From an uncultured Pseudomonadales bacterium (lineage in GTDB: Bacteria > Patescibacteriota > Microgenomatia > UBA1400 > UBA1396), in assembly GCA_964603945.1 (NCBI GenBank), contig CAZRWP010000002.1:123880-187879 (forward strand): 64,000 nt of DNA, in the 5' to 3' direction. The position numbers and the translations under genes were made by a program. The notes beneath the pieces were generated by a model. It was not told the DNA's origin. It did no database searches and saw only the letters and a program-made list of their open reading frames with translations. Below are positions 7,975-61,078 of the stretch, one piece after another. Numbering within the stretch: position 1 is the stretch's first letter; each line of letters begins with the position of its first letter.

Positions 7975-8823
7975 ATGAGCAAAAAGGTAAAAACATCCGA
8001 AGCTAAGAATTATGAATCCAAAAAGTTAAGAAATGTTCCTGATGATGAAAATTCTATGGGCAAACCTTTCTTCAAAAGTCTTTATTCACTTTGGCTAATA
8101 TCTATTGTTATTTTTTTTGTATCTTTATTGATTGTGCAAACTGATAAACAAACAAATATTTGGTGGCAATTAATAGCACTTTCAGTAATAAGCGGCTTCT
8201 TATTTTTCATCGCATTAATAAGGCAACTTGATCGAAACTCTAGAAGTGAGAGTTGCTCACGCTTTAGGTATCTTTCTGTAGCTACTTTTATAGCCTTTTT
8301 TGTATTGCTCTTTAATTTTTCAGATGTGGCGGCAATGTTGGGATTTACAAACTCTAGCAACATTGAAAGCACAAGCCAAAATAAGCAAGTTGTCCCGTCA
8401 TCAAAACCATCTCCCAAGTCAACTTATAAGCCGATATCATCCACCCTTCCTAAGCCTGTGCCAAAAGTTTCGCAACCAGTTAATACAAATAGCAGTTCAT
8501 CAAGTCAAATTGACTGTACGGGACCTGATGGCAAGGTGTTTAAGACATCGCAAAAAGAATGTGATGACTTTAATAAGGCTTGGGGAAATGCACCACCTCC
8601 AGATCCGAATGAGGTCATTAAATGCGGTATCCATACTAATTGTGGAGGCGGATATAAAGAGATGAGAAGAGCTGATTGTGAAAAAATATTATGCTGCTCC
8701 TTGTCGAGTGGAAATATTATGACTTCAAAAAAAGATTGTAATGATAAACAAGAGCAAGAATGTATCGAAACTTCTATGGATTATGGTCTCTCCATAAGTG
8801 ATGCCATCGATGTGTGTGACTAG
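7975..8823 (+). CDS. secreted/membrane-anchored Cys-rich protein (paralog of 27259..27957)
   Basis: N-terminal TM segments, S/P-rich linker, then a Cys-rich domain. The shared module QIDCTGPDGKVFKTSQKECDDFNKAW matches QITCTGPDGKQFQTTQKVCDEFNAAW in 27259..27957. Confidence 0.5.
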   Translation: MSKKVKTSEAKNYESKKLRNVPDDENSMGKPFFKSLYSLWLISIVIFFVSLLIVQTDKQTNIWWQLIALSVISGFLFFIALIRQLDRNSRSESCSRFRYLSVATFIAFFVLLFNFSDVAAMLGFTNSSNIESTSQNKQVVPSSKPSPKSTYKPISSTLPKPVPKVSQPVNTNSSSSSQIDCTGPDGKVFKTSQKECDDFNKAWGNAPPPDPNEVIKCGIHTNCGGGYKEMRRADCEKILCCSLSSGNIMTSKKDCNDKQEQECIETSMDYGLSISDAIDVCD

Positions 8824-12300: not shown

Positions 12301-13442
12301 ATTGGACTCAATACACTCAGCCAATTCAACCTCCAAGTGAAGGTTCTCATCTGCTGACTTATCGAGCCTTTGATCAGGCGAGTAACCCAAGCAAAGAAGG
12401 TGTTAGAACTATTCTCTACGACTCTACCGCACCTGGTCAGCCAGACATCAGCTTCAACCAGAACCCCACCAAGAAAAAAGAGGTGATGGTTATGTGGTCA
12501 GCCTCCCAGGATAACGTCGGCATTGTCCGCTACGATATCAGCTGGTCTGAGAAAGATGGCGACCGCTCATTTAGTAAATCCGTTGGCGGTGATGTCCTGG
12601 AAACCGAAATTGACGAACTGCGCGAAGGCAAGTGGACCGTTAAAGTCAAAGCTTATGATGACGCTGGTCACTCGACAGAATCAACCAGGACTCTGACCGT
12701 CGACACTTCTGCCCCACATGCTCCAGATTTAAAACTGGATAGCTATGTTGGTGGCACCGTTGAACTCAGCTGGGATAAAGTTGAGGATGGCGATGACTAT
12801 GTTGTGCTCTACGGCACCAGTTCTGGCGACTATCCTTTCGCCAAGCGGGTCGGTAATGTTGACTCCGTCACAATCAAAGATCTTAATGCCGGTCCCTACT
12901 ACTTTGTGGTCAAAGCTGAGGACAAGGCCAACAATGTTAGTAAAGCCTCTAATGAAGTCACCACTGCCCCAGATACGGCTGTTTTAGGCACGTCTGAGGT
13001 TGGCGGAGCTGATATTGCCTTAGTTCCGGCGGCTGGTTTTGCACCAACCGAGGAAGTGCTTGGTGACGATACCCAAGATGAAAAAGCTGGCAATATTTTG
13101 TCTGGCTCAGATGAATCAGAAACTCCAGGTGAAGTCTTGGGCGCGACGGACACCAACTCCTTTAACTGGTGGTGGTTGTCCTTGATCATCTACGTCATCA
13201 TGATGCTAATTACCTATGTCATGGCAGCGGAAAGCCGATCACTGCGCATTGTCGGTAACGTTATCGCTACCGCCATTGCCAGTTACTTGCTCTACCGCTG
13301 GCTGCCCCAGCCGCTAGTTTGGATTGGCGGATTGGTGGTCTTAAGCGCGATTATCGAAACATTGGTCTGGCTAAAATTTCCTGGCCAGGCAGTAATTAGC
13401 GTAACCAATAAGCCGACTGGCAGGTTCAAGCAAAATAGCTGA
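9363..13442 (+). CDS. giant surface protein, multi Ig/FN3-like beta-sandwich domains, C-terminal TM anchor (1359 aa as listed; frame open from 9258)
   Basis: Recurrent domain-boundary motifs about every 100 aa (VDNHGPDAP, YDSVAPDAP, IDNTAPEG, IDTKAPSA, IDNTIPTS, YDQTIPEV, YDSTAPGQP, VDTSAPHAP). C-terminal hydrophobic helices WWWLSLIIYVIMMLITYV.., VWIGGLVVLSAIIETLVWL. TTG is the first in-frame start, with no signal peptide of its own. Confidence 0.7.
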   Translation: MYQESFEIIDDQLVFQSEKELPGSDLGAIQSLSAPMMMTLAVSNATPSTNDANRTNGWAHVDQVTQGVGSTELEFISTRNFYSCFEYRTDGDTSQKISDTNFNAEILDGLYPYHCQINNSRPKTITANEYVEVRMVFGAEKDERFDWTRFDVYKLDVPEQLGYNLKDTNTPPGQTPPNLSCNNSVTNINGASVVWTDENTDSNIKYQRQYSLNGGQSWSGNEIYTSKFTNFRPFGNSAGMDMKVSSRVRAFYDLNTDGKLNNDEPASDWSNVCDITFDATTPTIELTNPSSGFVNNVVDIRASVQDANPHHYWLAAYKKNGSEIFSKVQNHSESFSDTSIYSWDTTLVEDGEYIIKFAERDAAGNRTSDISVEVTVDNHGPDAPIISFPGNEQYFKAAPILNQWSSVTDPAGIKEYRVEYVYDDLHDFSDAPYRIVTGTSRNHSPGNSEQGGVTIRVQAFDNLGNEGAWSEAVHYYYDSVAPDAPTLKSPEDGFITQGVKFVQTWEAVAGAVKYNYRSCQNDPTTETCQLKYSDSYTNPVKTVSAGQPDSHFWWQVQAIDAAGNISPWSDAWEMTIDNTAPEGTIDSVKYSNGKVSDKFVTNFNTPVIVGTFLSDDVESAVLSVNGHDYSVSINSSDWEATITDAIPDGDNELTLTVTDKAGNSKSFDKNIFIDTKAPSATHTYYKNGEAVTDSIAYANNISELTFTGNYEDQTPSAGLYWDSFVIFQAQDDGSFRFAANGKKSYCGWRSSPNLINLSGSSFSLATPAPFSDCVSSLENGEYYLAHQIFDNATRKDIPSINQFRDVLGLHFVIDNTIPTSAITAPITSTTNETYITNDWNGYLAGTAADVGSHVTEVKLSIKRNNGDYWDKDSASWISDPGNEVLFNADGTNNWTYTLPSHDPDTYTVRSHAVDAAGNQENTAELVIIYDQTIPEVKLTINPDQADGQNNWYVTKPTVTLDPSDENGIKLIEYQWDNTSNWTQYTQPIQPPSEGSHLLTYRAFDQASNPSKEGVRTILYDSTAPGQPDISFNQNPTKKKEVMVMWSASQDNVGIVRYDISWSEKDGDRSFSKSVGGDVLETEIDELREGKWTVKVKAYDDAGHSTESTRTLTVDTSAPHAPDLKLDSYVGGTVELSWDKVEDGDDYVVLYGTSSGDYPFAKRVGNVDSVTIKDLNAGPYYFVVKAEDKANNVSKASNEVTTAPDTAVLGTSEVGGADIALVPAAGFAPTEEVLGDDTQDEKAGNILSGSDESETPGEVLGATDTNSFNWWWLSLIIYVIMMLITYVMAAESRSLRIVGNVIATAIASYLLYRWLPQPLVWIGGLVVLSAIIETLVWLKFPGQAVISVTNKPTGRFKQNS

Positions 13443-14523: not shown

Positions 14524-17500
14524 ATGTTTGGTGTTGCCAGGGGTGTCATCTATCAAAAGACTGAATTCATGATTAGTAAATTAAACATTCTAAACCATAC
14601 AATTAATCGACTGCCTAAAATTGGTAAAGTTTTCTCGATAACGCTACTTGCCTTAACTTTAGGAGTCTTATTTTCAAGTTCAATTTCACAAGTAAAAGCC
14701 GAGCCATTAGTAGGTGAACTATCTTTTGACTCTACCGCTATAAATGTGACCGAAGGTGCGAATAACACCTATAGTATAGTCTTATTAAGCCAGCCAGTTA
14801 GTGATGTAGTTGTAACCTTAAGTCATGATGGCGAAATTTCGGTAGACAAAGACTCTGTGACCTTTACTGATTCTAATTGGGGAACGCCACAGATCATAAC
14901 GGTCACAGGTACTACTGATAATAAAGTTGAAGGGTCACACGATAGCACTATCACTCATTCTATTGCCACCGATACCGAAGTGGCCGAAGTCGTGGTTACA
15001 ATTGCAGATGCTACAGAAGCTGGTTATACGATACCAACCTCCAACTTTGAATTGGCCGAAAATAATCAAAGTGTCACTCGTGAAGTTGTATTGACCGCAC
15101 AACCAATTAATGACGTGGTATTTTCACTTACCTCTACCAATCCAGATAGGGTTATTGTAACGCCAGCAACTCTAACCTTTACAAATGCTAATTGGAGCAT
15201 CCAGCAAGAAATTTCTATTGCTTCTGTGGATGATTATATTCAGCAAACTTCTCCCGTAACAGCTGATATAAGTATTGGAATTGACGATGATAATAGTGAT
15301 CCACTTTGGGCGGATTTAACAGATAGTTCTTTTACCGTAACTCTCACCGATAACGATACCGCCGGCGTGACCGTTTCACCCACCTCCGTAAGTACCACTG
15401 AAGGTGGCGACACCGACGAGTACACAGTTAAACTGGACTCCCAGCCAACTGGCAACGTGGTAATTAACGTCATCCCAGACGGCCAAAGCTCCACCGATAA
15501 GTCAACGCTAACCTTTACCGCTGGCAATTGGGACTCCGACCAGACGGTTACGGTAACTGCGGTGGATGACACTTTAATTGAAGGCAACCACGCCTCCACC
15601 ATTACCCATGAAATTAACACCGCCTCTACCGATGACGCTCTTTATGACTCTTTAGACTCTCTAACGATTGTGACTAATAATATTTCAGATAACGACAATC
15701 CTGGCTTTTCTTTAAGCACGAAAAATTTGTCCGTAGAGGAAAATGGTGGCACCAATACTTTCTCCGTAGTTTTGTCCGCCCAGCCACAAGGCACCGTTAA
15801 CTTTGCTTTAGTTAGCAGTAGTACTGATGAGGCGACCGTTTCTCCGACCTCCATAACTTTTACTAACGCTAACTGGGATGAGGCGCAAGTTGTGACCGTG
15901 ACCGGCGTAGATGATGACCACCTCGGTAATGACACTGCCCAAATTAGCGTTAGCGTTGACAGTTCTGGATCTGACGCTAACTGGGACTCACTACCCACAG
16001 ACTCAGTTGATATTTTGCTCCTAAATAATGACGAGGCCGGCGTGACCGTTTCACCCACCTCCGTAAGTACCACTGAAGGTGGCGACACCGACGAGTACAC
16101 CTTGGTCTTAACTGCCCAACCCTCGTCGGAGGTAATAATTGATATCTCCCCAGACGACCAAAGCTTAGTAGATCCTAACCAAGTTACCTTTACTACTGGC
16201 AACTGGAACATAGCCCAAACCATTACCGTATCTGCAAATGATGACACGCTTCTGGAGCCGACTCACTCTAGTACTATTTCTCACAGTCTAAGTGGTGACA
16301 CTGACTTTAGTGAAGTTTCCATTAGTAGCGTTACTAACACCATTACAGACAATGACCAAGGTGCCATTGAAGTAGAAAGCACGTCTTTAGTTGTTGGTGA
16401 AAATGGTGGTGAAGGCTCGATTGCAGTTCGTCTAACTCAGCCTCCCACCGCTAGCGTGGTCGTCCAAGCGGTTTCTACTGACACTAGTGAGGCAACTGTT
16501 TCTCCTAGTGAACTCACCTTTACCACGGACAATTGGCAAGATTACCAGAACTTTTTAGTTGTGGGTGTAGATGACAATATTGACCGCAACGACAGCACCA
16601 CTATTTCCTTAAACATTGATGAAACCCGTTCTCCAGAAGAGTGGCAAGGCACGGACAGTGTCCAAGTAGAGATCTCTCTCACCGATAACGATACCGCCGG
16701 CGTGACCGTTTCACCCACCTCCGTAAGTACCACTGAAGGTGGCGACACCGACGAGTACACAGTTAAACTGGACTCCCAGCCAACTGGCAACGTGGTAATT
16801 AACGTCATCCCAGACGGCCAAAGCTCCACCGATAAGTCAACGCTAACCTTTACCGCTGGCAATTGGGACTCCGACCAGACGGTTACGGTAACTGCGGTGG
16901 ATGATGTAACGGTAGAAGGCACACATAGTAGTACTATCAATCACGAAATTAATACCAGCGACACTGAAGATTCTGTCTATTTAGAACTAGGTTCGTTATC
17001 TCAAGTAGCCAATAACATTACGGATAATGATAGTCCTGCTTACACTCTGTCAGATGAATCTACTTCAATTACTGAAGGGAGTTCTCAAGTTATAAGTATT
17101 AATTTGCAAACCCGCCCAACTTCAACTGATTCACCAATAAAACTAGAAATAAATTCTTCAGATACTAATGAAGCAAGTGTTGACCCCTCATTTGTTGAGT
17201 TTACCTATGACAATTGGAACACGCCAAAAAACTTTACGATTTATAGTATCGAAGACTACGTAGTACGTAGTGATACGGCTACTATTTCCATCTCACCAGC
17301 TGAGACTAATCCGACTAGCTGGAAAGGGGATCAGCTAGCTGATAAACAAATTAATGTCAGTTTTATTGACAATGACGTGCCTGCTTTTAGCGTTAGCCAG
17401 TTAGATGTGGGTATAGCTGAAGGAGATTCAGATACGGTTGAAGTTATGCTTGATGTAGCTCCGGAAAACCAAGTTGCATTGACTGTAGCTAGCAGTAATC

Positions 17501-18789
17501 CTTCATTAGCTACGGTATCACCGAACTCACTTATATTTACCAACGCTAATTGGGACACGCCACAAGTAGTTACCTTAGAGGCCGTAGAAAATGATGTTGT
17601 AGGAAATAGTACTTCGGAAATTTCTCTTTCCATTGACACTTCTAATTCTGATGCAGCCTGGCATGGATTAATGGTAGAAACTGTATCGCTCATGATTCAA
17701 GACAATGATTCTCCTCAAGTATTATTGTCTCCGACTGATATCGAACTTGAAGAAGGTAGTTCAGGCGCAGTCAGCTTGAGATTAGGTTCCCAACCCCAGA
17801 CAGACTCTGTTGTGGTAATTGAGCTAATTCCAAACACGACTGAGTTGGATTTAGGTAATGGATTTGCTTCCAATATGACAGTTAGTTTTGATAGCACCAA
17901 TTGGAATGTAAATCAACAAGTGCCAATTATGGTTCAGGATAACTCTTTAGTCGATGACAATCGGATGGCTGAAATAAGAGCCAATATAAGCGTTATTGAA
18001 ACTACTGATCCAGATTATCTTGACCTAGTCTGGGATGAAATTATTTATGTACAAATTCTTAATAATGATGATCCAGAAATTCCTGTGCCAGAAGAACCAA
18101 CGCCAGAAGAGCCAACACCGCCCAAGAAAAGCAGTAAAAAACCCAAGAGCGAGTCAGAAAACAGAAGCAAAGCTTGCACTAACAGCAGCCCAACCGGAAA
18201 GCCATATTTGTTTCAAATTAAGATGCAGGGATCTTCAGCAGAACTATTCTTTGCTCCTACCCAAAACACAACTGACTACTTAGTTATGTATAACGTTGTC
18301 AATAATGATCAACAACACTCAATGAAGTTTGCCCATAAAGATAATTCGGGAGTTGTGTCAACGACCATCAATGATCTGGCTACAAATACGCAGTATAGTT
18401 TTAGTGTGCGCTCATTCAATGAGTGCCAACCAGGTGAGTGGAGCAATGAAATGGTTGTCAAAACCAGTGCAAGCACCACGGCTACCCTATTTTATGCCGG
18501 TGGCGAATCCGAAGCGGCGGGCGGATCATCGGCGAATACTGACCTTGTCGGATCTGAACTTTCAACTGTGGATAATAATGAATCTGTATTACTTGAAGCT
18601 TCACCTGATGATTTTGTAGCCGATAAAGCAAATAACGACCCAACTAGCAATGATCGTGACGATGGTGAAAATGCGGACAATTCTCATCAACTTAGTGGAG
18701 CAACTAATTCAGTCGGCAATAATGAACAACCAAACAAATCTTGGTTAAGACGAGTTTGGGATACATTTACCAATATATTTTCCAGGTAA
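14524..18789 (+). CDS. giant secreted repeat protein (1421 aa): signal peptide, at least 10 tandem roughly 100-aa beta-sandwich (Calx-beta/cadherin-like) repeats, FN3-like domain, acidic low-complexity C-terminus
   Basis: Signal-like KIGKVFSITLLALTLGVLFSSSISQVKA (the true start may be the Met at about 14569). Repeat consensus ...VTVSPTS..T.EGG.T..Y.V.L..QP...V......TF...NW...Q.V.V.AVDD...EG.H..TI.H.... PEEPTPEEPTPPKK linker. Confidence 0.8.
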   Translation: MFGVARGVIYQKTEFMISKLNILNHTINRLPKIGKVFSITLLALTLGVLFSSSISQVKAEPLVGELSFDSTAINVTEGANNTYSIVLLSQPVSDVVVTLSHDGEISVDKDSVTFTDSNWGTPQIITVTGTTDNKVEGSHDSTITHSIATDTEVAEVVVTIADATEAGYTIPTSNFELAENNQSVTREVVLTAQPINDVVFSLTSTNPDRVIVTPATLTFTNANWSIQQEISIASVDDYIQQTSPVTADISIGIDDDNSDPLWADLTDSSFTVTLTDNDTAGVTVSPTSVSTTEGGDTDEYTVKLDSQPTGNVVINVIPDGQSSTDKSTLTFTAGNWDSDQTVTVTAVDDTLIEGNHASTITHEINTASTDDALYDSLDSLTIVTNNISDNDNPGFSLSTKNLSVEENGGTNTFSVVLSAQPQGTVNFALVSSSTDEATVSPTSITFTNANWDEAQVVTVTGVDDDHLGNDTAQISVSVDSSGSDANWDSLPTDSVDILLLNNDEAGVTVSPTSVSTTEGGDTDEYTLVLTAQPSSEVIIDISPDDQSLVDPNQVTFTTGNWNIAQTITVSANDDTLLEPTHSSTISHSLSGDTDFSEVSISSVTNTITDNDQGAIEVESTSLVVGENGGEGSIAVRLTQPPTASVVVQAVSTDTSEATVSPSELTFTTDNWQDYQNFLVVGVDDNIDRNDSTTISLNIDETRSPEEWQGTDSVQVEISLTDNDTAGVTVSPTSVSTTEGGDTDEYTVKLDSQPTGNVVINVIPDGQSSTDKSTLTFTAGNWDSDQTVTVTAVDDVTVEGTHSSTINHEINTSDTEDSVYLELGSLSQVANNITDNDSPAYTLSDESTSITEGSSQVISINLQTRPTSTDSPIKLEINSSDTNEASVDPSFVEFTYDNWNTPKNFTIYSIEDYVVRSDTATISISPAETNPTSWKGDQLADKQINVSFIDNDVPAFSVSQLDVGIAEGDSDTVEVMLDVAPENQVALTVASSNPSLATVSPNSLIFTNANWDTPQVVTLEAVENDVVGNSTSEISLSIDTSNSDAAWHGLMVETVSLMIQDNDSPQVLLSPTDIELEEGSSGAVSLRLGSQPQTDSVVVIELIPNTTELDLGNGFASNMTVSFDSTNWNVNQQVPIMVQDNSLVDDNRMAEIRANISVIETTDPDYLDLVWDEIIYVQILNNDDPEIPVPEEPTPEEPTPPKKSSKKPKSESENRSKACTNSSPTGKPYLFQIKMQGSSAELFFAPTQNTTDYLVMYNVVNNDQQHSMKFAHKDNSGVVSTTINDLATNTQYSFSVRSFNECQPGEWSNEMVVKTSASTTATLFYAGGESEAAGGSSANTDLVGSELSTVDNNESVLLEASPDDFVADKANNDPTSNDRDDGENADNSHQLSGATNSVGNNEQPNKSWLRRVWDTFTNIFSR
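15346..15579 (+). repeat. exact 234-nt intragenic direct repeat, copy 1 (copy 2 at 16681..16914; partial third copy 16036..16100)
   Basis: Base-by-base comparison of the two stretches shows 234/234 identity. The third copy shares the first 65 nt. Confidence 0.85.
16681..16914 (+). repeat. exact 234-nt intragenic direct repeat, copy 2
   Basis: Identical to 15346..15579. Confidence 0.85.
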
Positions 18790-26501: not shown

Positions 26502-27230
26502 CTATTCCGGATAACATCCCCAATTTTCGTACCAATTGTACCCTTCTAAGTTTTGGGTACAGCAATCTACGTCGTTACCAGCTGAACACTCGGTTGGGCA
26601 TATTCCATCAGATTCAGCACTACAGCTGGCCATTGATTTGGGATAACATCCCCAGTTTTCAAACCAATGGTAATCGGAAAGTTTTTGGTCACAGCAATCA
26701 GCATCGTTACCGGCTGAACAATACCAGTGGCAAATTCCGTCTGCTTGAGCAGAGCATAATAGCTCCTTGGGATAGCACCCCCAATTTTCATACCATTTAT
26801 AGTCTGATCTGTTTGAGCAACAATCATTATCGTTTCCAGCGGTGCAGTTGCTAGGACAAATGCCATCACTAACAGCTGAGCACTTTTGTATAGGTGTTGG
26901 AATGACTACTGGCTTTGATGTTGGTTTGCGAGTCGGTTCTGAGACAGGAACAAGTGGTGCTGAGTATGGTTTTTGAGTAGTTGCGGGTTTTGGTTCCGGT
27001 GCGGCTGGTTTAGGTGCGGTTGGAGTATTTCCTCCCCCATGACAATGTCGTTCATTCCAAGGTACGCCCCATTCGTCACAATTTGTCCGACAGTAGTGAC
27101 AGCCATCCGAGGCCGTCCTGCCAGGATGGGCCAAAGTAGATGTTGAAAACGTAAACAAGAAAGCTAAAACTGCAAGATATATAAGGATAATCTTAGTCAC
27201 TATGGTTTTAGTATAACCTGAAATACCCAA
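26502..27230 (-). CDS. secreted Cys-rich protein with triplicated 7-Cys roughly 40-aa module
   Basis: Signal peptide. PT-rich linker. Three tandem repeats CSA.SDGICP.NC.AGND.DCC.......Y.WYENWGCYP[KE]. Confidence 0.6.
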   Translation of the reverse strand: MGISGYTKTIVTKIILIYLAVLAFLFTFSTSTLAHPGRTASDGCHYCRTNCDEWGVPWNERHCHGGGNTPTAPKPAAPEPKPATTQKPYSAPLVPVSEPTRKPTSKPVVIPTPIQKCSAVSDGICPSNCTAGNDNDCCSNRSDYKWYENWGCYPKELLCSAQADGICHWYCSAGNDADCCDQKLSDYHWFENWGCYPKSMASCSAESDGICPTECSAGNDVDCCTQNLEGYNWYENWGCYPE

Positions 27231-27258: not shown

Positions 27259-27957
27259 TTAATTTATTGGGTAGCGTTGCTCACAAATAGAAATTTCCTG
27301 GCTCAGATTTCTTTCAATAATTTTCATGGAAGTCTCATATGCGCTACTATCTAAGGCACCGAGACTTCTTAGCTTATTCCTAATAGCAAGACTTTCTTGT
27401 CTATAATCATCTCTTGCGTCTTGTATACATTTTGAATTTTCGTAAGTGTAATCTATTTGCTCTTGTATGTTTAATTCATTTGCTTCGTAAAGTTCTGCAA
27501 AGAATTGTTGACTCTCTAGGTCTCTTTTTTTACTTGACTCACAGTTTTGTGGAGAAAGCTTATAAGTACCATAACTCAGCTCACAATCAACTGTTTCGTA
27601 CTTTGGTGCAGTGAAGTTGTAATATGCGTCGTCTGGTTTTTTAGTTGGAGTGAAAGTTGCTACTGGTTTTTTCTCCCAAGCTGCATTAAATTCATCACAC
27701 ACTTTTTGTGTAGTCTGAAATTGTTTTCCGTCAGGTCCAGTACAAGTTATTTGGGATGAGGTATTTGCTTTGGGAGCTGGCGCCTGGGGTGTAGACTTAG
27801 CTGAGGGTTTTGGCGTGGATTTAAAATTACGATTGATTACTTTTTCAACAGCAGGGCTTGGTGAAGGCTGTGCTTGAGGTGAAGTATTATCTAGTCCACT
27901 AGTGATAATAATACTAGAAGCTATTGCGACAATGAATGTAATTATTAATCCAGGCAT
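27259..27957 (-). CDS. secreted protein, paralog of 7975..8823 (shared CTGPDGK..F.T.QK.CD.FN.AW module)
   Basis: N-terminal TM/signal, S/P/K-rich linker, shared module, C-terminal helical region. Confidence 0.5.
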   Translation of the reverse strand: MPGLIITFIVAIASSIIITSGLDNTSPQAQPSPSPAVEKVINRNFKSTPKPSAKSTPQAPAPKANTSSQITCTGPDGKQFQTTQKVCDEFNAAWEKKPVATFTPTKKPDDAYYNFTAPKYETVDCELSYGTYKLSPQNCESSKKRDLESQQFFAELYEANELNIQEQIDYTYENSKCIQDARDDYRQESLAIRNKLRSLGALDSSAYETSMKIIERNLSQEISICEQRYPIN

Positions 27958-51684: not shown

Positions 51685-52062
51685 ATGGCTGTTCATACTA
51701 ATAATTTACGTCGACTAGCGATTCTCTATTGGCGTCATTCTAAGGATGACAAGGAGAATTCCTGGACCAAGGAGCTCTATGAGGCTCTGATTTATGATGA
51801 TGAGTTGCGGATTCGCCAAAGATATGACACTGAATTTATCTTTGCCAATGTTAATCGCCGGACTGAAAGCTACATTCAAAACAAGGATGTTGTGGAAGCA
51901 CTTCGGCGCCACAAGGAGCGTTATCATCCCTTGGTTTATATGGATCTAGTTTTCCCCAACGAGCGCGGTAGCCGTGAAGAAATCAGAATTATTTATAGCC
52001 AGAATGATATCCGCGAAGTTATTAAACGGATAAAGTACTACATTATTGAGTACGAAAAGTAA
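51685..52062 (+). CDS. hypothetical protein (125 aa)
   Basis: ORF only. Confidence 0.35.
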   Translation: MAVHTNNLRRLAILYWRHSKDDKENSWTKELYEALIYDDELRIRQRYDTEFIFANVNRRTESYIQNKDVVEALRRHKERYHPLVYMDLVFPNERGSREEIRIIYSQNDIREVIKRIKYYIIEYEK

Positions 52063-52083: not shown

Positions 52084-54564
52084 TTAGTTGCCGAAAGTTG
52101 GCGGTTTTGGTGGCTGAAGCCCGGCTGGTGCGGCTGGCTGGATGTCTTGTCCAGTGGTTGGTTGGGCAGGAAGTTGTTCAGAGGTTGGCTGAGTAGGAGG
52201 CTGTTCGTCTGCCTGAGGTCCGACTGGCGAATTAACTGTTGGCTGGGTTACATCCTGTGAATCAACTGGTGGTTGTGTTGTTGTTGATTCAACCGATTGA
52301 GGCATATTTGGCGGTGTCAAAGCTGAGTCTGTTGATAAAGTCTCATTAAAAGAAACATTTGAGGGATAGGTGGGGGCGGATGAAGGCATAGCTGATGGTG
52401 CTGGCGTACCGGTAACCGGCGCATCTGAGCTGGATCCGGTCTCAGTAGATGGTACTGTTTGAACTGCCTCGGCTCCTTGGCTGGAGTCCTCTAATGGAGA
52501 CATTTCATCATCTGAAAGAACCACTGGAATGTCTTGAACCATTTGTACTAGTTCATTCAAGCTATCTTGAACCTCATCTGCATTGTCAGGGATTTCAAGG
52601 GTTTCAGGGGACTGGGTTGGTGCAGGTGTAGGACTGGATGTTGGCGCGGGAGTTGTTTCATCTGCTCCCATTTTGCTTAATTCTTGATTCCCTGGCTGTT
52701 CTGGCTCAGAAAATACTTCAGCTGGCGTAAAATCTGTCCCCTGATCTGAAGATTCGTTATTTTCGATTGACAAATCAAGAGTTGGAGTTGAGGTTTGAGC
52801 AGGCGTTGATGCCTGGGCAGGAGCAGGTGTAGGTGTTGGTGCGGAAGTTCGCATAGGTGCTGGTGCCGAAGCAGGTTCTTGCGTTGGCGTTGGCACTGAA
52901 TCTGCTGTCGGTGTTTGTGATAAATCTGGCACTGGCTTAATAGATGGCATTGCATTTGGCATAGCCGATGTTGGCGTTGAAATTGGTGCCTCTGCCGGCA
53001 GAGGAGTTGGTTCTGATGAAGGTGAACTATTTACCTCAGCATTGGGCTGTGGTTGAGCATTGGGCTGTGGTTCAACATTTGGTGGGGTTTGAGCTACCTG
53101 ATCTGTTGGCGTTGTATCTGACATAGCAATACTTTCTAAGTTTGTTGGGTCTTGAGACATTGGGCTAGGTTGAGGTGTGGAAATAGGTGCTTGAGCAGGA
53201 ACTGGCTCAGTTGCCGGAGCTGGCATTTGGGCTGTTTGATTAGAAGGCTCAGGCTGAGAAGCAGGATAAGTCGGAGAAGTTGGAGCAGTTTGCATAGCAG
53301 GTTGTGTGGAAGCCATCAGAATTTCTTCAATTCTTAAAAGCCGATTATATTTAACGACTCTTTCACCTCTGGATGGGGCGCCAAATTTAACGTAATCAGT
53401 TCCAATGCCGACGGCAATATCTGCTAAAACGTCATCAGTAGTTTCGCTAGAACGGTGCGACATGATGGTGTGCCAGCCGGCTTGCTTGGCAATACTGGCT
53501 ACTTCAATAGCTTCCGTAATAGTTCCAATCCGGTTAGGCTTAATGACCAAAGCATTGCAGGCCTTTTCTTCAATTGCTTTCATGAGTAACGTTTTGTTGG
53601 TGGCGATCAGGTCATCAGCGATAATCATTGCTGTCTCGCCCATCTCACCAGTAATAAATTTCCAATCACTCCAGGCTTCCGGTACTAATGGATCCTCAAA
53701 AGCGAAAACCCGATATTGTTCATGCAGTTTTTTAAGATACTTGGCAAAATCCTTGCCACTCATTGGCTGAGATTGATCTTTAATGGTGTATTTGCCGCTT
53801 TTATGGAAGTTATCTGAGCCGACATCAATTCCTAAAAAGGCATCCTTAGAAATGGTGTAGTTAGCGGCTTTAGCGGCTTCGGCAAAAATTTCCAAGGCAT
53901 CTGTATTGGTAGCCAGGTTAGGTGCAAAACCACCCTCCAGACCAACATTGGTTAGAGCACCCTTTTGTTTGAGCACTTCCTCAATTGACATGAACATCTC
54001 CACACCAATTTTTAGAGCTTGGTTGTATGGTAGATGGCTGGCAGGAACAAGTTGGAACTCCTGGAAATCCAAGGTGCCGCCACCATGGCGGCCGCCATTA
54101 ATTAAATTAAAAATGGGTGAAGGAATGCGGAAAGCATCGATTAATTGGTATTTTTCTTTAACATAGACAAACAGCGGCAAACGCAAGGAAGCCGCGGCCG
54201 CCTTCATCACTGCCTGGGAAACCGCCAGAATCGTATTAGAGCCTAAGCGTGATTTATTTTTGGTACCGTCTAGATCCACCAGCAGCTGGTCAATCTTAGT
54301 CTGGTAAAGTGGATCTTGCCCGGCTAGTTTTTGGTTGATTTCCACATTTATCAAAGCGACTGCTTTTGAGACGCCCAGGCCAAAATACTCAGTTGGCACA
54401 TGATCGCGCAGCTCAACCGCCTCCACTTGCTCATTGCTTATGTTACCTGAGGGAACCGATGAAGTCGCAATGGTGCCATCGGACAGGGTGACGGTAGCCT
54501 CAACCGTTGGGCGTCCTCTGGAATCAAGTATTTGACGGGCGGTGATAAGTTGAATATTTGACAT
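52084..54564 (-). CDS. eno: enolase fused to a roughly 390-aa Pro/Thr/Ser/Ala/Gln-rich low-complexity C-terminal extension
   Basis: Enolase blocks SRGRPTVEATV, SHRSSETTDDVLADIAVG, KFGAPSRGERVVKYNRLLRIEEIL. After the enolase domain at about 430 aa the frame continues into ...TAPTSPTYPASQPEPSNQTAQMPAPATEPVPAQ... through ...PPKPPTFGN. Confidence 0.85.
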   Translation of the reverse strand: MSNIQLITARQILDSRGRPTVEATVTLSDGTIATSSVPSGNISNEQVEAVELRDHVPTEYFGLGVSKAVALINVEINQKLAGQDPLYQTKIDQLLVDLDGTKNKSRLGSNTILAVSQAVMKAAAASLRLPLFVYVKEKYQLIDAFRIPSPIFNLINGGRHGGGTLDFQEFQLVPASHLPYNQALKIGVEMFMSIEEVLKQKGALTNVGLEGGFAPNLATNTDALEIFAEAAKAANYTISKDAFLGIDVGSDNFHKSGKYTIKDQSQPMSGKDFAKYLKKLHEQYRVFAFEDPLVPEAWSDWKFITGEMGETAMIIADDLIATNKTLLMKAIEEKACNALVIKPNRIGTITEAIEVASIAKQAGWHTIMSHRSSETTDDVLADIAVGIGTDYVKFGAPSRGERVVKYNRLLRIEEILMASTQPAMQTAPTSPTYPASQPEPSNQTAQMPAPATEPVPAQAPISTPQPSPMSQDPTNLESIAMSDTTPTDQVAQTPPNVEPQPNAQPQPNAEVNSSPSSEPTPLPAEAPISTPTSAMPNAMPSIKPVPDLSQTPTADSVPTPTQEPASAPAPMRTSAPTPTPAPAQASTPAQTSTPTLDLSIENNESSDQGTDFTPAEVFSEPEQPGNQELSKMGADETTPAPTSSPTPAPTQSPETLEIPDNADEVQDSLNELVQMVQDIPVVLSDDEMSPLEDSSQGAEAVQTVPSTETGSSSDAPVTGTPAPSAMPSSAPTYPSNVSFNETLSTDSALTPPNMPQSVESTTTQPPVDSQDVTQPTVNSPVGPQADEQPPTQPTSEQLPAQPTTGQDIQPAAPAGLQPPKPPTFGN

Positions 54565-54576
54565 GGCAAGTTATTA

Positions 54577-56856
54577 TTACTTTTTAATTCTGGCTTCGGT
54601 GTCGGCAATTAACTGCCTGGCAGTATAAATGGCGTCCGGTGTAACCGAAACCGAGGTCACTCCCCACTCTACCAATTTTTCCAGCATGGTGTGATGGGTA
54701 GTTGGTGCTTGTCCACAAACTGAGATAGTAACATTGTGCTGTCTGGCTTTACGCACCAGGCGTTCCAAAGCCCACATTACTGATGGATGTGTTTCATCAT
54801 AAGCGGGTGCGACATTTTCATTATCGCGGTCGGTTCCCAACATCAGCATGGTTAAGTCATTAGTACCCACTGAAATGCCGTCAATACCGGCTTTGATGTA
54901 GTCTTCGATCATCAGCACATTTTCCGGGATTTCCGCCATCATCCAGAGCTTAAAGGTGGAGCTTCGGCGAATACCAGCTTTATAAATTAGTTCCTTAGCC
55001 GCTTCCAGTTCCTGGACGGAGCGGATAAAGGGAATCATCATCCACAGGTTTTTGTGTTTTTCTCTGACTTTTTTGATCGCCTCGAGTTCCAAATTGAATA
55101 CCTTGGCGTCATGAATATAGCGGAAACAACCCCGGTAACCAATCATGGGATTTTCCTCATGAGGCTCATACTCTTCACCGCCAATTAAGTGACGATATTC
55201 ATTAGTTTTGAAATCAGTTGCCCGGTAAACCACGGGTCGGTCACCAAAAGCTTCACAAAACGTAGATATACCAGCCGCCAGTTCTTTAACAAAAACTTTT
55301 TCACGCTTTTTAGCCAGTAAGGCGCGGGGGTGGTGGCCTAATTCGGCAATCATAAACTCTGCGCGTAAAAGTCCAACTCCATCAACATGTAAACCAGCTA
55401 CTTTTTCTGATAAATCTGGTTCGGCTAAATTAACATAAACTTTAGTTTTGGTTTTCAGTTTTTCTGAGGTATCTTGAGCGGTGGCCGCCTCAAATTCAGC
55501 CAAAACTTCTTCCGCAATTTCACCCTCATAGACTTCACCGGTTTGACCATTAAGAGTCACTAACTGACCATTTTTTAATTTCTTAGAGGCACTGCCAGTA
55601 CCGACCACACAGGGCAAACCAAGTTCACGCGACACAATAGCGGCATGAGAGGTTTGTCCACCTTTATCGGTTACCAAGCCGCCGGCTTTTTTCATGGCTG
55701 GGACAAAATCTGGCGTGGTCATGGCCGTGACCATAATTTCGCCGACTTCCAGCTTATGAATCTCACTAGGTGTTTTAATGTGCTTAACTTTGCCGGAAAT
55801 GATACCTGGCGATGCTGGCTCACCATCCAGAATTTTAGTCATTTTACTAAGCATTGACTGCATCTGGTCATTAACTTCAGCTTTATCATTAATAGTTTTT
55901 ATGGTGGTAATTGGGCGGGTTTGGACGATATAAATTTTGTCGTCTTCAATTGCCCACTCAATATCTTGCGGATGATTGTAATGCTCCTGAAGTTTGACAG
56001 CTAATTTGGCCAAATCGGCGGCTTGTTTATCGGTGAGCTTACGCTTTTCCTGACGTGATTTAGGAACTTTGTAATTTTTAGTACGGCCAAGTTTACGAAC
56101 CATCTCAATATTTTGTTTAACCTTTTGCGCTTTGGTAACTTCCCAGTCTTTCTTTCTGACTACGTAATGATCTGGCGTAACTGTTCCCTGGACAATATTT
56201 TCACCCAGACCCCAAATTGCTTCAACAATGACAAAATCATCATTATTATTGATTGGATTAATTGAAAACATGATGCCGGAAACATCAGACTGCACCATTT
56301 TTTGGACTGGCACGGCAATTCCCACTTTAAAATGGTCAAAACCCTGATTTACCCGATAAAAAATTGCTCTAGCTTCAAACAGTGAAGCCCAAGCGGCTTG
56401 GGTATATTTGAGTACTTTTTTATCTTTATGAATATTAAGAAAAGTAGCCTGCTGTCCCGCAAAAGACGCTTCCGGCAGATCCTCTGCCGTGGCTGATGAA
56501 CGGATGGCTACATTTACATTTTTACCCAGCTTGTGATAAGCCGTAATAATATTGGTTGCCAGCTCATCTGGCATTTTGGCCTTAAGAATAATTTCCTGAA
56601 CCTGCTTAGCGGCCTTTTGGAGTTTTTGGGAATTATTAACATCCAACGGTTCCAAAATCGCACGAACTTTGTCTTCGAGATTATTAGCCTTGATAAAACG
56701 AAAATATGCCTGGGCAGTAATAACAAAACCGTCCGGCACCGGAAAACCGGATTGGACCATTTCTCCCAAGTTGGCACCTTTGCCACCAACTTCGGCACCG
56801 CTCTTTCGGTCTATTTCTTTGAACCACAAAACATCGGTCGGGGCAGATTTCGACAT
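54577..56856 (-). CDS. ppsA: phosphoenolpyruvate synthase (pyruvate, water dikinase)
   Basis: N-terminal ATP-grasp GGKGANLGEM. Phospho-His domain GGQTSHAAIVSRELGLPCVVG. C-terminal PEP-utilising domain. 759 aa. Confidence 0.8.
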   Translation of the reverse strand: MSKSAPTDVLWFKEIDRKSGAEVGGKGANLGEMVQSGFPVPDGFVITAQAYFRFIKANNLEDKVRAILEPLDVNNSQKLQKAAKQVQEIILKAKMPDELATNIITAYHKLGKNVNVAIRSSATAEDLPEASFAGQQATFLNIHKDKKVLKYTQAAWASLFEARAIFYRVNQGFDHFKVGIAVPVQKMVQSDVSGIMFSINPINNNDDFVIVEAIWGLGENIVQGTVTPDHYVVRKKDWEVTKAQKVKQNIEMVRKLGRTKNYKVPKSRQEKRKLTDKQAADLAKLAVKLQEHYNHPQDIEWAIEDDKIYIVQTRPITTIKTINDKAEVNDQMQSMLSKMTKILDGEPASPGIISGKVKHIKTPSEIHKLEVGEIMVTAMTTPDFVPAMKKAGGLVTDKGGQTSHAAIVSRELGLPCVVGTGSASKKLKNGQLVTLNGQTGEVYEGEIAEEVLAEFEAATAQDTSEKLKTKTKVYVNLAEPDLSEKVAGLHVDGVGLLRAEFMIAELGHHPRALLAKKREKVFVKELAAGISTFCEAFGDRPVVYRATDFKTNEYRHLIGGEEYEPHEENPMIGYRGCFRYIHDAKVFNLELEAIKKVREKHKNLWMMIPFIRSVQELEAAKELIYKAGIRRSSTFKLWMMAEIPENVLMIEDYIKAGIDGISVGTNDLTMLMLGTDRDNENVAPAYDETHPSVMWALERLVRKARQHNVTISVCGQAPTTHHTMLEKLVEWGVTSVSVTPDAIYTARQLIADTEARIKK

Positions 56857-57736: not shown

Positions 57737-60028
57737 TTAAAAGTCTTCATCTACTTCGGCTTGATGCTCTTTTAAAGTTTTATCATAATCTTCATTATTT
57801 ACTTGAAGATCTTTAAGCCTTAATTTCAAAACATTGATCTTGTCTTGATTTGATATGCCTTTAACTAAGTAAAAATACTCAATATAACGTTTATCTTTTT
57901 TTGCATCATATTGAATAGCCGGCAAGACAATAGTGTCAAAATCAAGTTTTCCAGTGTTTAAGTCTGCAAGGATTTCTTCGTACAACGAAATGAGCTTGAT
58001 TTTGGCTGATAAGTAATTGGTTTTAAACAATTCTACGATTTCATCACCCTCATCAGCATAATGTTTTTGAAGAATTTTTAAATTCTCTTTCCTTTTCTGT
58101 GATTGATCATTTGATTCTGTGCGTCTTAACAAACGCTTCCACCATTTCTTTTTTGGTACATTATTGTCTGGTTCTTGATTATTGGGAAATATTGGCCGAG
58201 GATCGTTATTACCTTCACGAACTTCTTTATGGTCGCTTGTGCCGAGATGGGGCGTTTCTTCTGGTTTGTTCTTGAATAGAGATCTGTACTTAGGATCTGC
58301 AAAAACTCGTTGGACTGCATTCCAAAAACTAAAAGGCGTTGTTATGTCAAAATTATATATTTCAGCTAATATTTCAAGTGGAATATTGTTGGCTGTTAAT
58401 TCATTACCATTAGACAACCTTAATGTTATGCCTTTATCTTTATAGCTCTTAATTACTTGATTAAACGTATTGAGCGCATCTTCAGGAGAAATTTTATCGG
58501 CGTGCGACTGTAAAAATTCCTCTACTGTTTGAGGTTGTGGGGATTGATTGGGTTTTCGCTCTGAATTAATTGCACTAGTTGGTCTTGTGTCGTCATCTGA
58601 TATTGGTGGCTCGTCAATAGTAGGTTGGTTTACAGGGGTGATCGGAGTAGTAATCTCAGGAGATGAGTCAGCATTTACAACACCAGTACTTATAGGTTCA
58701 TCTGATGGTTGATCTTCATTTAACCATTCTTGAAGCCAATTCGGTGCACTTTCTTCCTTTGCGGGATCGGATATCGGTTCGGGATTCTGACTGTCAGTGA
58801 CGACAGTTGGGCTTGGCTCTACTGATTCAGGTTGAACAACTGACTCGATCGGGTTGACAAGGCTATCAAGCCTGCTTGAAGCATCATCAGAAGGTACAGA
58901 TTTAGTTGGAGCTTGCGATGTTGGTTGAGTTGTTGCAAGACTTTCAGGTTCACCAGCGCCTTCTGCTTCTAAGCTTGGGTTTGTATCTAGTGATACATGA
59001 AGCTCTTGACGTTTTTTAATCTCTTCCTTAGAAACTTCTGGTCCTGGACCAGTATCCACCCCTTTTGCCCTAAGCTGTTTTTGTAGCTTGGCTATCCTGG
59101 CCTCTGAATTATCAAGATAATTACTAACCAATGTTTTTTCTAAACTTGCAGCCTCATCTCGTAGCTGTTTAATTTGATCAAGATTATCATTTACCATCTT
59201 TAAAATCTCATCTTGTCTAGTTTGTGCCTCGGCAAATGCTTGCTGAGCTTCTTTTAGTAAAAACTCTGCTGTTTGGAAATCATTCATTTTTGCAACGTGT
59301 TCATCAGAAAGAATTTCCTCTTCTTCTGGATCGAATTCATTGTTGGATTTAAGTATTGTTTCCTGTTCGTCTCGGATCTGAAAAGCGGTTTTAATTTCGC
59401 TTGTAGCATGGGCTAGGGAGATATGCGCATCTCTGGCATCAGGAAATAAAGATTTATTAGCTTGGCTCAGTTCTTCAATTGCAGATCTTATTTGAGACAA
59501 TCTTTCATGGGAAGCTTGAAACTCAGCTTTTTTTCGTGCATTTTTAGCCTGTTGCTCACGGTAAGCTTGCTTGGCATCTTCGTATAGTTTGATAGTTTCA
59601 ATGTTTCTAGTCTCAAGACCTTGATACATTCCAAGCTCAATGGCCAGTGCCTCTCTCACTTTCTCATTACCCGCTTCCTCAATACGTTTTTCTAGATCAG
59701 CGATAATTGAGCTGAAATCAACTTTACTTCGATCTTTTATTTCTTTATCCAAATCTTTGACAAAAGCATGTCCGGTCTCTTCTAGAGCATCTTCACGGAC
59801 AGCAGTATTAGCAACTCTTAGATTTCGATCAAGATCATGCCCAAGTTGCTCAGAAAAATCGTGAGGAAGATCTTGTGAGCGCAAACCACTTGGAAATTCA
59901 GGGTTATTCTTTAATTTATCATCTAGCTGTTGTCTAAATTCTGCCTCTGAGGCAATGTGAAAGGGTTCATCTATTGTTTCATTAGGTTGAGTTGTTTGGT
60001 CAGATACTTCTTGTCGATTTGCAGTCAT
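57737..60028 (-). CDS. large hypothetical protein (763 aa), coiled-coil N-terminal half with a Pro/Ser-rich disordered centre
   Basis: Heptad-like charged segments. PESVEPSPTVVTDSQNPEPISDPAKEE low-complexity region. Confidence 0.5.
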   Translation of the reverse strand: MTANRQEVSDQTTQPNETIDEPFHIASEAEFRQQLDDKLKNNPEFPSGLRSQDLPHDFSEQLGHDLDRNLRVANTAVREDALEETGHAFVKDLDKEIKDRSKVDFSSIIADLEKRIEEAGNEKVREALAIELGMYQGLETRNIETIKLYEDAKQAYREQQAKNARKKAEFQASHERLSQIRSAIEELSQANKSLFPDARDAHISLAHATSEIKTAFQIRDEQETILKSNNEFDPEEEEILSDEHVAKMNDFQTAEFLLKEAQQAFAEAQTRQDEILKMVNDNLDQIKQLRDEAASLEKTLVSNYLDNSEARIAKLQKQLRAKGVDTGPGPEVSKEEIKKRQELHVSLDTNPSLEAEGAGEPESLATTQPTSQAPTKSVPSDDASSRLDSLVNPIESVVQPESVEPSPTVVTDSQNPEPISDPAKEESAPNWLQEWLNEDQPSDEPISTGVVNADSSPEITTPITPVNQPTIDEPPISDDDTRPTSAINSERKPNQSPQPQTVEEFLQSHADKISPEDALNTFNQVIKSYKDKGITLRLSNGNELTANNIPLEILAEIYNFDITTPFSFWNAVQRVFADPKYRSLFKNKPEETPHLGTSDHKEVREGNNDPRPIFPNNQEPDNNVPKKKWWKRLLRRTESNDQSQKRKENLKILQKHYADEGDEIVELFKTNYLSAKIKLISLYEEILADLNTGKLDFDTIVLPAIQYDAKKDKRYIEYFYLVKGISNQDKINVLKLRLKDLQVNNEDYDKTLKEHQAEVDEDF

Positions 60029-60085: not shown

Positions 60086-61078
60086 TTATCCCAATCCTGG
60101 CAGATTTAATATTGTTACGCCAATATATTCTAGGATGATGATTGAAAAGATGATGAAAAGTAGTCCACTAATAGCCGCTGTTATTAACTCTTTAGCTTGT
60201 TTAACTTTACCTGATTCACCACGTGAGGTGGTGAAGATAAAGGAAGAGGCCAAAATTGATAGGAATGAAGCCATACCAGCGACCCCTAATAATATCTTGA
60301 TTAAACTGGCGGCAAAGACGTTAAATTTTCCATCTTGAGCTACCTGAATACACCCAACCGCGGTAAAGATATACTCGCCTTCTATTCCTTTATTAACACA
60401 AGCTTGACAAGCTCCTCTTTGAGTTGAAGGGTCATTAATATCTCCAGGAACTTGATTGCAGTAGTCGAATGGAATTCCCGCTGTTGATTGTTTTACTTCG
60501 CAAGCATAAGAACTTTCACAGCACCATCGACTGTCGTAAGATGATGTTTCTACATCTTGAGTACAAAAGGATCCTCCAGCTTTGGCGCAAAACTCTCGTG
60601 CTGATGTATCAGTTGGAAATTCAGTGTGAGATAAATCTAAGCATCCTTCAGTAACTCGACATACGCCATCTGACGCACAAGAACCTCTTAAGCATTCGGA
60701 GTCATTCTTGCACGCGCCTCCTAGGTCAGATAAGCGTCCGGCAGAGAAGCACTCGCAAACTGATAGACCACCGCCAGATACTGTCTTTTTTCCTTCAAAA
60801 CACCAAGCGGCTGACGGGAAATCACCAAGCTCTGAATCATAGCAACAATATTGTCCGTAGCCACCACAGTTGGGAAAAGCTGATCTATCACTAGGATCTT
60901 TGCAGATTCCACTAAAGCCTGAGCCAAGGTCATTTCTCTCACAAAATAATCCAGGAGCACATCCGCTATCTAGTTTGGTGTAATCACAGGATTCTCCAGC
61001 TGCTATTTGAGCTTTGACACTAGATTGGAAGAAAAAGAAATAAAATAATACTAATAATAGTAAAGTAATCCTTTTCAC
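60086..61078 (-). CDS. TrbC/VirB2-like pilin with a large N-terminal Cys-rich ectodomain
   Basis: Signal peptide. About 230-aa domain with more than 30 Cys. C-terminal LLGVAGMASFLSILASSFIFTTSRGESGKVKQAKELITAAISGLLFIIFSIIILEYIG resembles the VirB2/TrbC pilin core. Confidence 0.55.
   Translation of the reverse strand: MKRITLLLLVLFYFFFFQSSVKAQIAAGESCDYTKLDSGCAPGLFCERNDLGSGFSGICKDPSDRSAFPNCGGYGQYCCYDSELGDFPSAAWCFEGKKTVSGGGLSVCECFSAGRLSDLGGACKNDSECLRGSCASDGVCRVTEGCLDLSHTEFPTDTSAREFCAKAGGSFCTQDVETSSYDSRWCCESSYACEVKQSTAGIPFDYCNQVPGDINDPSTQRGACQACVNKGIEGEYIFTAVGCIQVAQDGKFNVFAASLIKILLGVAGMASFLSILASSFIFTTSRGESGKVKQAKELITAAISGLLFIIFSIIILEYIGVTILNLPGLG

Follow-up and report, generated by a model that had tools for sequence, protein, structure and literature searches.

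A conserved-motif, acidic C-terminal tail on the enolase of a Patescibacteria clade

What might a long, proline-rich tail do on an enolase? The question is raised by a single open reading frame (ORF) on the minus strand of contig CAZRWP010000002.1 (assembly GCA_964603945.1), within a stretch of 64,000 nucleotides (forward-strand positions 123,880 to 187,879) that was analyzed as a whole and is called the window here. The ORF, at 52084–54564, has 826 codons and encodes a full enolase (aa 1–419) joined to a 407-aa tail (aa 420–826). The fusion is real, and its tail holds short motifs kept throughout a clade of relatives; these suggest specific docking rather than a passive stalk. A preliminary description of this DNA had already pointed to a C-terminal extension on the enolase; that extension stands, with a length of 407 aa (nt 52087–53307) rather than the roughly 390 given there. 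The gene and its two main parts are:

52084–54564, minus strand: complete gene for the 826-aa enolase with its tail, including the TAA stop codon at 52084–52086 (from the ORF list and stop context)
53308–54564, minus strand: enolase catalytic module, aa 1–419 (Enolase_N at aa 4–135, Enolase_C TIM barrel at aa 146–419; from Pfam, TIGR01060, and the alignment to 3h8a)
52087–53307, minus strand: acidic Pro/Thr/Ser/Ala/Gln-rich C-terminal tail, predicted to be disordered, aa 420–826 (from composition, charge, and structure prediction)

Reality of the fusion and conservation within the tail

The limits of the ORF and of the Pfam matches bear out the earlier outline, in which the enolase domain ends at RLLRIEEIL and is followed by 1.2 kb of stop-free, proline-rich frame. 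The domain end is at ...YNRLLRIEEIL (aa 406–416; written ...KYNRLLRIEEIL for aa 405–416), past which the frame stays open to ...GLQPPKPPTFGN (also ...AGLQPPKPPTFGN) and then TAA. This is more than chance would give: the probability of 410 codons without a stop is 7e-8 (base composition within the tail gives a stop probability of 0.039 for each codon); the other five frames of the tail region have 9–28 stops each, so that this is the only open frame of the six; and GC at codon positions 1, 2, and 3 of the tail is 0.61, 0.59, and 0.29, a strongly periodic coding signal.

The same architecture was found in about 40 clusters, with proteins of 574–826 aa, from ENA, JGI, NCBI, and Logan in a search of 5.8 billion proteins. 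Contigs carrying tailed enolases include ones of 0.70 and 1.08 Mb, the longer of which (ERZ27297427:k119_32747, 1,076,735 bp) encodes the relative P0017, and an organism with an identical RpoD has been assembled from at least six independent samples. SRR30791824, JGI 3300001682, and SRR7082976 are among the samples in which the organism is present. The comparisons below use 39 sequences, the window protein and 38 relatives from these four sources. Absence of the tail from related genomes had been considered as a sign of a chimera; the tail is present in all 39 orthologues recovered, so this objection fails. Nor is there a stop or indel just after the enolase domain in independent assemblies from several samples, which keep the same frame throughout. 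One strain variant (P0123, 820 aa) is missing exactly one 18-nt unit (aa 499–504), in frame, from a small repeat, and is otherwise 99 % identical:

53036–53079, minus strand: 18-nt tandem repeat within the tail, encoding PQPNAQ/PQPNAE (Tandem Repeats Finder, period 18, 2.4 copies)

The copy number of this repeat therefore differs between strains (826 vs. 820 aa), which makes slippage one source of change in tail length. A missed stop, a frameshift, or a chimera joining enolase to unrelated sequence is effectively refuted by the clusters, sources, contigs, and samples just listed, the restriction to an in-frame indel, the codon-position signal, and conservation of the motifs at the protein level. 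The fusion was also rightly called unusual: outside the clade, the median extension past the enolase domain is 16 aa.

Apart from short islands, the 39 tails cannot be aligned with one another. In the full alignment only three non-proline tail columns, Q666, L672, and L816, are conserved at 90 % or more, and all three fall in motifs 2 and 3 of the following set:

52711–52725, minus strand: motif 1, P-A-E-V-F, aa 614–618, sub-lineage-specific (from motif comparison of the 39 tails)
52537–52578, minus strand: motif 2, putative acidic amphipathic helix D-E-V-Q-D-S-L-N-E-L-V-Q-M-V (DEVQDSLNELVQMV), aa 663–676 (from conservation and structure prediction)
52099–52122, minus strand: motif 3, C-terminal polyproline peptide G-L-Q-P-P-K-P-P, aa 815–822, 4 residues before the stop (from conservation)

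Motif 2, with the consensus [D/E]-[I/V/L]-Q-x-S-L-N-E-L-[A/V]-x-M, is present in exactly one copy in every one of the 39 tails. Among the 12-mers of the tail it ranks at the 99th percentile for hydrophobic moment, and no other tail segment is more amphipathic. Motif 3, in the form G-L-x-P-P-x-P-P, is found in 38 of the 39 in one or two copies, the last of which ends 0–18 (usually 2–5) aa before the stop codon; the residues conserved at 90 % or more are L816, P819, P821, and P822. Between the helix and the terminal peptide lie 19 to 212 residues. An aromatic motif 1 (xEVF/PAEVF, FASIF, or EVHF types) lies upstream of the helix in 19 tails. Judged by this pattern of conservation, the tail with its motifs is a selected feature clade-wide.

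The composition of the window tail is 20 % P, 13 % T, 12 % S, 10 % A, 9 % Q, and 7 % E (S + T, 25 %). It is also strongly acidic, with 49 D/E vs. 4 K/R and a net charge of −45, a feature absent from the preliminary description. Across the 39 tails, length ranges from 157 to 408 aa, proline from 16 to 30 %, net charge from −8 to −45, and K + R from 0 to 14. The term "mucin-like," used previously, suits the composition but not the architecture: Tandem Repeats Finder gives three tiny arrays of 2–4 copies that together span about 140 of roughly 1220 nt, and the sequence as a whole is not built from repeats.

Order-promoting residues form a fraction of 0.10–0.21 of the tails vs. 0.34–0.38 of the enolase domain. 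AlphaFold2 (AF2), run with the clade alignment on the window protein and on one relative (P0035) whose tail shares nothing with it except the motifs, gave predicted local distance difference test scores (pLDDT) below 50 for the tail except at a single helix on motif 2. This helix covers aa 662–675 in the window protein (pLDDT about 55–62) and aa 559–571 in P0035 (pLDDT about 80). The tail is thus predicted to be intrinsically disordered. A Pfam scan of the tail found no family, and its sole match in the PDB, the Ala/Pro-rich N-terminus of a myosin light chain, is composition-driven.

In a six-frame scan of 140 kb of DNA from clade genomes, motifs 2 and 3 occur in the enolase tail only. A profile of the helix, linker, and C-terminal peptide, searched against 1.84 billion representatives, found no other family with the module (a local control put clade members at E = 1e-11 to 1e-3, with about half of the known members passing E = 1e-3). 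Provisionally, then, the module appears to be enolase-specific.

Five matches to the profile were rejected as relatives: they are large repetitive proteins with many matches to the helix part, insignificant scores per stretch, and no meaningful Pfam link. In the repetitive proteins P0252, P0254, and P0255 (583–2927 aa), what the profile matches is a recurring "C.DVQ..ID.LVGIVT" or "TATDVQDAIDEVV" unit, whose likeness to the helix motif is probably coincidental.

The enzyme, its relatives, and its neighbors

The catalytic module is a member of an ordinary family. Enolase_N (PF03952) matches at 150.5 bits against a cutoff of 35 and Enolase_C (PF00113) at 274.5 against 21.5, and the NCBIfam equivalog TIGR01060 ("eno") at 449 against 300. 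Residues 1–416 align to E. coli enolase (PDB 3h8a, the top PDB match; E = 3e-104), with H160, Q168, E169, E210, D247, E290, D317, K342, H370, R371, S372, and K393 all kept (E. coli counterparts, in mature numbering: D245, E289, and D316; K341 and E208; H158, Q166, E167, H369, R370, S371, and K392). Throughout the clade, conservation is complete or at least 90 % at the metal-I ligands, at the catalytic Lys/Glu pair, and at the His/Arg/Ser/Lys residues that bind phosphate; the enolase domain of P0035 is predicted by AF2 with pLDDT 95–99. The enzyme looks catalytically competent.

There is one departure, in active-site loop 1:

54427–54453, minus strand: remodeled active-site loop 1, PSGNISNEQ, aa 38–46 (from the alignment to 3h8a)

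In E. coli, Ser41 of this loop is a ligand of the second, catalytic Mg2+ and folds down onto the substrate (PMC6863902). The residue aligned with it in the window protein is Ile42, and a one-residue insertion puts Ser43 beside it; a neighboring residue or a backbone carbonyl may stand in for the serine. Across the clade this position is Ser in 1 of 39 members and I/V/M in the other 38, while among other enolases the canonical G-[A/T]-S start is found in about 70 of 78 and G-A-S-T-G in 64 of 78. By alignment, then, the canonical Mg2+-binding serine of loop 1 is lost in the tailed clade. The tail and the remodeled lid loop arose in the same lineage, and a functional link between them is possible.

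Enolase domains within the tailed group are 64–99 % identical (median 73 %), and among the top 120 matches every other enolase is at most 55 % identical to the clade; the exception is P0028, which belongs to the clade but has a tail without the terminal motif. Several enolases outside the clade (P0041–P0048 and P0050) also have PT- or Q-rich tails, shorter ones and without the motifs. The low-complexity extensions of such non-clade enolases run to 45–240 aa, and the two that are named (P0048 and P0050) are labeled Pacebacteria/Paceibacterota. P0041, P0043, P0044, and P0050 resemble the window protein in having PT-rich tails, but no enolase domain among them is more than 55 % identical to those of the clade, and none of them ends in G-L-x-P-P-x-P-P; P0050 does have a helix-like "IDSTLQEIG" segment. 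A scan of genome contigs with generic enolase patterns found ordinary enolases only, at 40–45 % identity, and no tailed orthologue; scanning the contigs with the single protein gave no match.

Other enolase arrangements were seen in metagenomes: an adenylate kinase-enolase fusion of 644 aa (P0053), an enolase with a 295-aa Asn/Ser/Gln-rich N-terminal extension (P0056), and an 888-aa protein with two enolase-like modules in tandem (P0052).

The best named relatives of the window RpoD, at 71–75 % identity, are in the Microgenomates group, Saccharimonadia, Woesebacteria, and Pacebacteria, and RpoD relatives at 80–100 % identity are on the same large contigs as tailed enolases. By RpoD, the contigs of about 1 Mb, and gene content, the window belongs to a lineage of the Patescibacteria, or Candidate Phyla Radiation (CPR). 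A literature search on tailed enolases in CPR bacteria, or on disordered extensions of CPR proteins, found nothing relevant. By homology the enzyme itself is an ordinary one; its novelty lies in the tail with its conserved module and in the missing serine of loop 1.

The gene immediately upstream is that of a phosphoenolpyruvate (PEP) synthase or pyruvate phosphate dikinase (PPDK)-type enzyme, which has PEP, the product of enolase, as substrate or product:

54577–56856, minus strand: PEP synthase/PPDK-type (ppsA-like) gene, 759 aa, upstream of and probably co-transcribed with the enolase gene (from Pfam PPDK_N, PEP-utilizers, and PEP-utilizers_C)

From its stop codon to the enolase ATG there are just 12 nt (54565–54576, minus strand; TAATAACTTGCC), in which no obvious Shine-Dalgarno sequence was seen; this suggests translational coupling or a leaderless-like initiation within an operon. 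A promoter and terminator scan around the enolase gene found nothing above shuffled expectation. The gene order MraY-MurD-FtsW ... PEP synthase/PPDK-like, tailed enolase, 125-aa ORF, Band7, and RadC is kept at the loci of two distant clade members (L081 and L083).

In the window, the 125-aa ORF (51685–52062, plus strand) is convergent to the enolase gene and belongs to no Pfam family. L081, L082, and L083 each have an ORF of 124–125 aa at the same position and on the opposite strand, with Band7/SPFH and RadC after it. Also nearby is a 763-aa protein (57737–60028, minus strand) with no Pfam match. Its N-terminal half is charged and by eye coiled-coil-like, and a central acidic Pro/Ser/Thr-rich stretch at about aa 340–500 makes it a second acidic, P/S/T-rich segment near the enolase. 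Farther off, a GMP synthase homologue (2344–4215, minus strand; 623 aa) has about 240 residues between its ATP-pyrophosphatase match (205–292) and its C-terminal dimerization domain (535–622), and is about 100 residues longer than the usual enzyme.

What the tail might do

Where the protein acts bears on any role for its tail. The protein opens, with MSNIQLITARQILDSRG, directly in the first beta-strand of the enolase fold and thus lacks a signal peptide. In the 39 tails, Kyte-Doolittle means over 19 residues reach 1.49 at most, too low for a membrane-spanning segment; LPXTG and other sorting signals are absent, and nothing hydrophobic follows the polyproline motif. Three small proteins in the window do have an N-terminal hydrophobic anchor, followed by a PT linker of about 40–50 aa, and are probably exported; their linkers are short and lysine-rich, unlike the long acidic tail on the leaderless enolase. 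The lack of export features, together with the neighboring PEP enzyme, favors a cytoplasmic role.

The reading that seems most likely to us is that, in the common ancestor of this CPR clade, the C-terminus of enolase was extended into a long, acidic, proline-rich, unfolded tether. Most of it would be free to change in sequence and in length (157–408 aa), probably acting as an extended, non-sticky spacer whose acidic and proline-rich character gives reach and prevents collapse. The helix and the terminal polyproline peptide, with the aromatic motif in some sub-lineages, would let the enolase dimer dock on one partner or several inside the cell, conceivably including other enolase dimers, and so fix the position of the enzyme or its partners in an assembly. 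We judge docking the best of the explanations because the spacers are hypervariable while the islands within them are invariant, one of them with helix propensity and one fixed at the extreme C-terminus; as a complete account, with a disordered tether and an intracellular partner, we would put it at about an even chance.

Several points weigh against this reading. Partner binding by the motifs, the cytoplasmic location, and the identity of any partner are all things that we infer. The missing export signals are weak evidence for the cytoplasm, because enolases are known to moonlight on bacterial surfaces without signal peptides, as in the streptococcal surface enolase (PMC4373793). Catalysis may be altered, given the loss of the loop-1 serine. 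A Uversky charge-hydropathy plot puts just 9 of the 39 tails on the disordered side; the plot fails to discriminate such Ala/Pro-rich tails and was not used as evidence, so the disorder call rests on proline content, the scarcity of order-promoting residues, and AF2 confidence. The searches for the motif module outside enolase were also of low sensitivity: in the library clustered at 50 % identity, the clade is reduced to representatives with sub-threshold scores; a word-indexed motif search returned nothing, its positive controls included, and is hence uninformative; and a DNA pattern for the helix motif in metagenomes gave 28 loci with a single true tail (L099), the other 27 being chance matches within globular proteins. 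The enolase-specificity of the module therefore depends mainly on the 140 kb of local sequence.

A bolder extension of the docking reading, which we hold tentatively and think may well not survive, would make enolase the hub of a lineage-specific assembly, carrying its own scaffold as a kind of inverted degradosome and recruiting others, or being recruited, through the helix and polyproline peptide. PEP and ATP production might thereby be localized in an ultra-small cell, and the lid-loop change might reflect regulation by assembly. Candidate partners would be the adjacent PEP-utilizing enzyme, RNA-processing enzymes, or the division or host-contact apparatus.

As a first alternative, the enzyme might reach the surface by non-classical export, with the tail as a wall-spanning stalk or adhesin and the motifs attaching either to a component of the envelope or to the cell that an episymbiotic CPR bacterium has as its host or partner. 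Display or host binding by a stalk had been the function proposed in the preliminary description, and in that form it finds no sequence support: besides the missing signal peptide, membrane segment, and LPXTG motif, and the different linkers of the anchored proteins, the tail has no mucin- or stalk-type tandem-repeat architecture, and the gene is in an apparent operon with a cytoplasmic PEP-utilizing enzyme. The leaderless surface enolases cited above are a precedent for it; the Pro/Thr-rich segments of those other window proteins do follow N-terminal anchors and are probably exported; the organism is a CPR bacterium of about 1 Mb with giant Ig-like/fn3 surface proteins, in whose lifestyle host contact matters; and an SH3-like domain outside the cell might recognize the terminal polyproline. 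On balance surface display seems unlikely.

The window has several other proteins of surface type. The giant proteins at 9363–13442 and 14524–18789 (both plus strand; 1359 and 1421 aa) have Big_13 Ig-like and fibronectin-III domains, a combination typical of CPR surface proteins. Two of the small anchored proteins (27259–27957, minus strand, and 7975–8823, plus strand) continue from the Lys-rich PT linker into a near-identical cysteine motif, I[TD]CTGPDGK.F.T.QK.CD.FN.AW; they look like paralogues of one family, are probably exported, and match Pfam not at all or weakly, below threshold. Two Cys-rich proteins, again with no Pfam family, are probably secreted or membrane-bound: one (26502–27230, minus strand) with three "CS/TAGND.DCC...Y.W.ENWGCYP" repeats, the other (60086–61078, minus strand) with hydrophobic segments at its end.

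As a second alternative, the tail might be self-directed, the helix and/or the polyproline peptide binding the enolase domain in cis or in trans and so regulating the lid or cross-linking dimers into assemblies or condensates. This would be a special case of docking, with enolase as its own partner. It would fit a module found only on enolase and its co-occurrence with the clade-specific replacement of the Mg2+-binding serine, and it has an echo in E. coli, whose enolase binds a short peptide of an unfolded scaffold (PMC4435900; 3h8a being the top PDB match here). When AF2 models P0035 as a single chain, its helix has a pLDDT of about 80, a high value for an unbound helix, but the corresponding value in the window protein is just about 55–62. 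Docking of the helix onto the domain was not seen in the AF2 output, which came without contact maps or predicted aligned error, and linkers of 19–212 residues between the motifs exceed what a cis-regulatory element needs. We regard this possibility as quite unlikely.

The third alternative, that the tail is largely non-specific, would make it a tolerated low-complexity expansion, at most an entropic bristle or solubility tag, with the motifs as remnants that bind nothing. Its fast drift in length and sequence is what would be expected, as is the variation in 18-nt repeat copy number between strains, and the shorter, motif-free PT/Q-rich tails of CPR enolases outside the clade (e.g., P0041–P0048) point to a general tendency to grow tails. 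Drift does not, however, explain a helix motif kept as a single copy in all 39 tails, nor a polyproline motif beside the stop codon in 38 of them, and the frame has been kept open although identity between enolase domains falls to 64 %. This explanation we consider very unlikely.

Comparison with known systems

The cell organization and host contact of ultra-small CPR/Patescibacteria are little known, and the tail motifs offer a concrete handle on them: two motifs of 8–14 residues, kept clade-wide, could be used as baits or for an in silico screen of a proteome of about 1,000 proteins. A partner, if found, would reveal a new intracellular assembly or a new route of surface display. The tail is also a clean natural case of short-motif conservation within a hypervariable bacterial disordered region, and in this clade enolase appears to work, or to be regulated, in the absence of the usual serine of loop 1.

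With the canonical bacterial enolase (E. coli Eno, 3h8a/1e9i) the window protein shares both Pfam domains, an end-to-end alignment, and the active-site residues. Canonical enolases end 10–20 residues past ...RIEE, whereas this one adds a 407-aa tail, and 38 of the 39 clade members have Ile/Val/Met for the loop-1 Ser.

The layout of a globular domain, a variable linker, and a short conserved C-terminal peptide is also that of FtsZ, with its C-terminal linker and conserved C-terminal peptide, and of SSB, with its disordered linker and acidic tip, in both of which the terminal peptide docks partners. The families and motifs are unrelated, and the enolase tail has an extra internal helix and is far more acidic and proline-rich.

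The surface enolases of streptococci and other pathogens (PMC4373793) are the same enzyme and a precedent for a second binding role. They lack an extension, and the residues with which they bind are those of the folded enzyme, while the clade enolase has a tail, without any export feature. In Mycoplasma pneumoniae, acidic and proline-rich (APR) regions of terminal-organelle proteins (e.g., TopJ, made up of a J-domain, an APR region, and a C-terminal domain) serve in localization (PMC12325244). There the APR region is internal, the organisms are unrelated, and the two resemble each other just in composition, without detectable homology; both are nonetheless cases of an acidic, proline-rich region on a housekeeping-type domain in a minimal-genome bacterium.

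The C-terminal scaffold of E. coli RNase E is unfolded and contains microdomains, among them an enolase-binding site at residues 834–850 (PMC4435900). It differs in being Arg-rich rather than acidic and proline-rich, and in the clade the scaffold is on enolase itself, with no sequence similarity found to that of RNase E and no RNA-binding or membrane-targeting segment apparent. What the two have in common is a long, fast-evolving disordered region with short conserved recognition segments, and enolase is involved in both.

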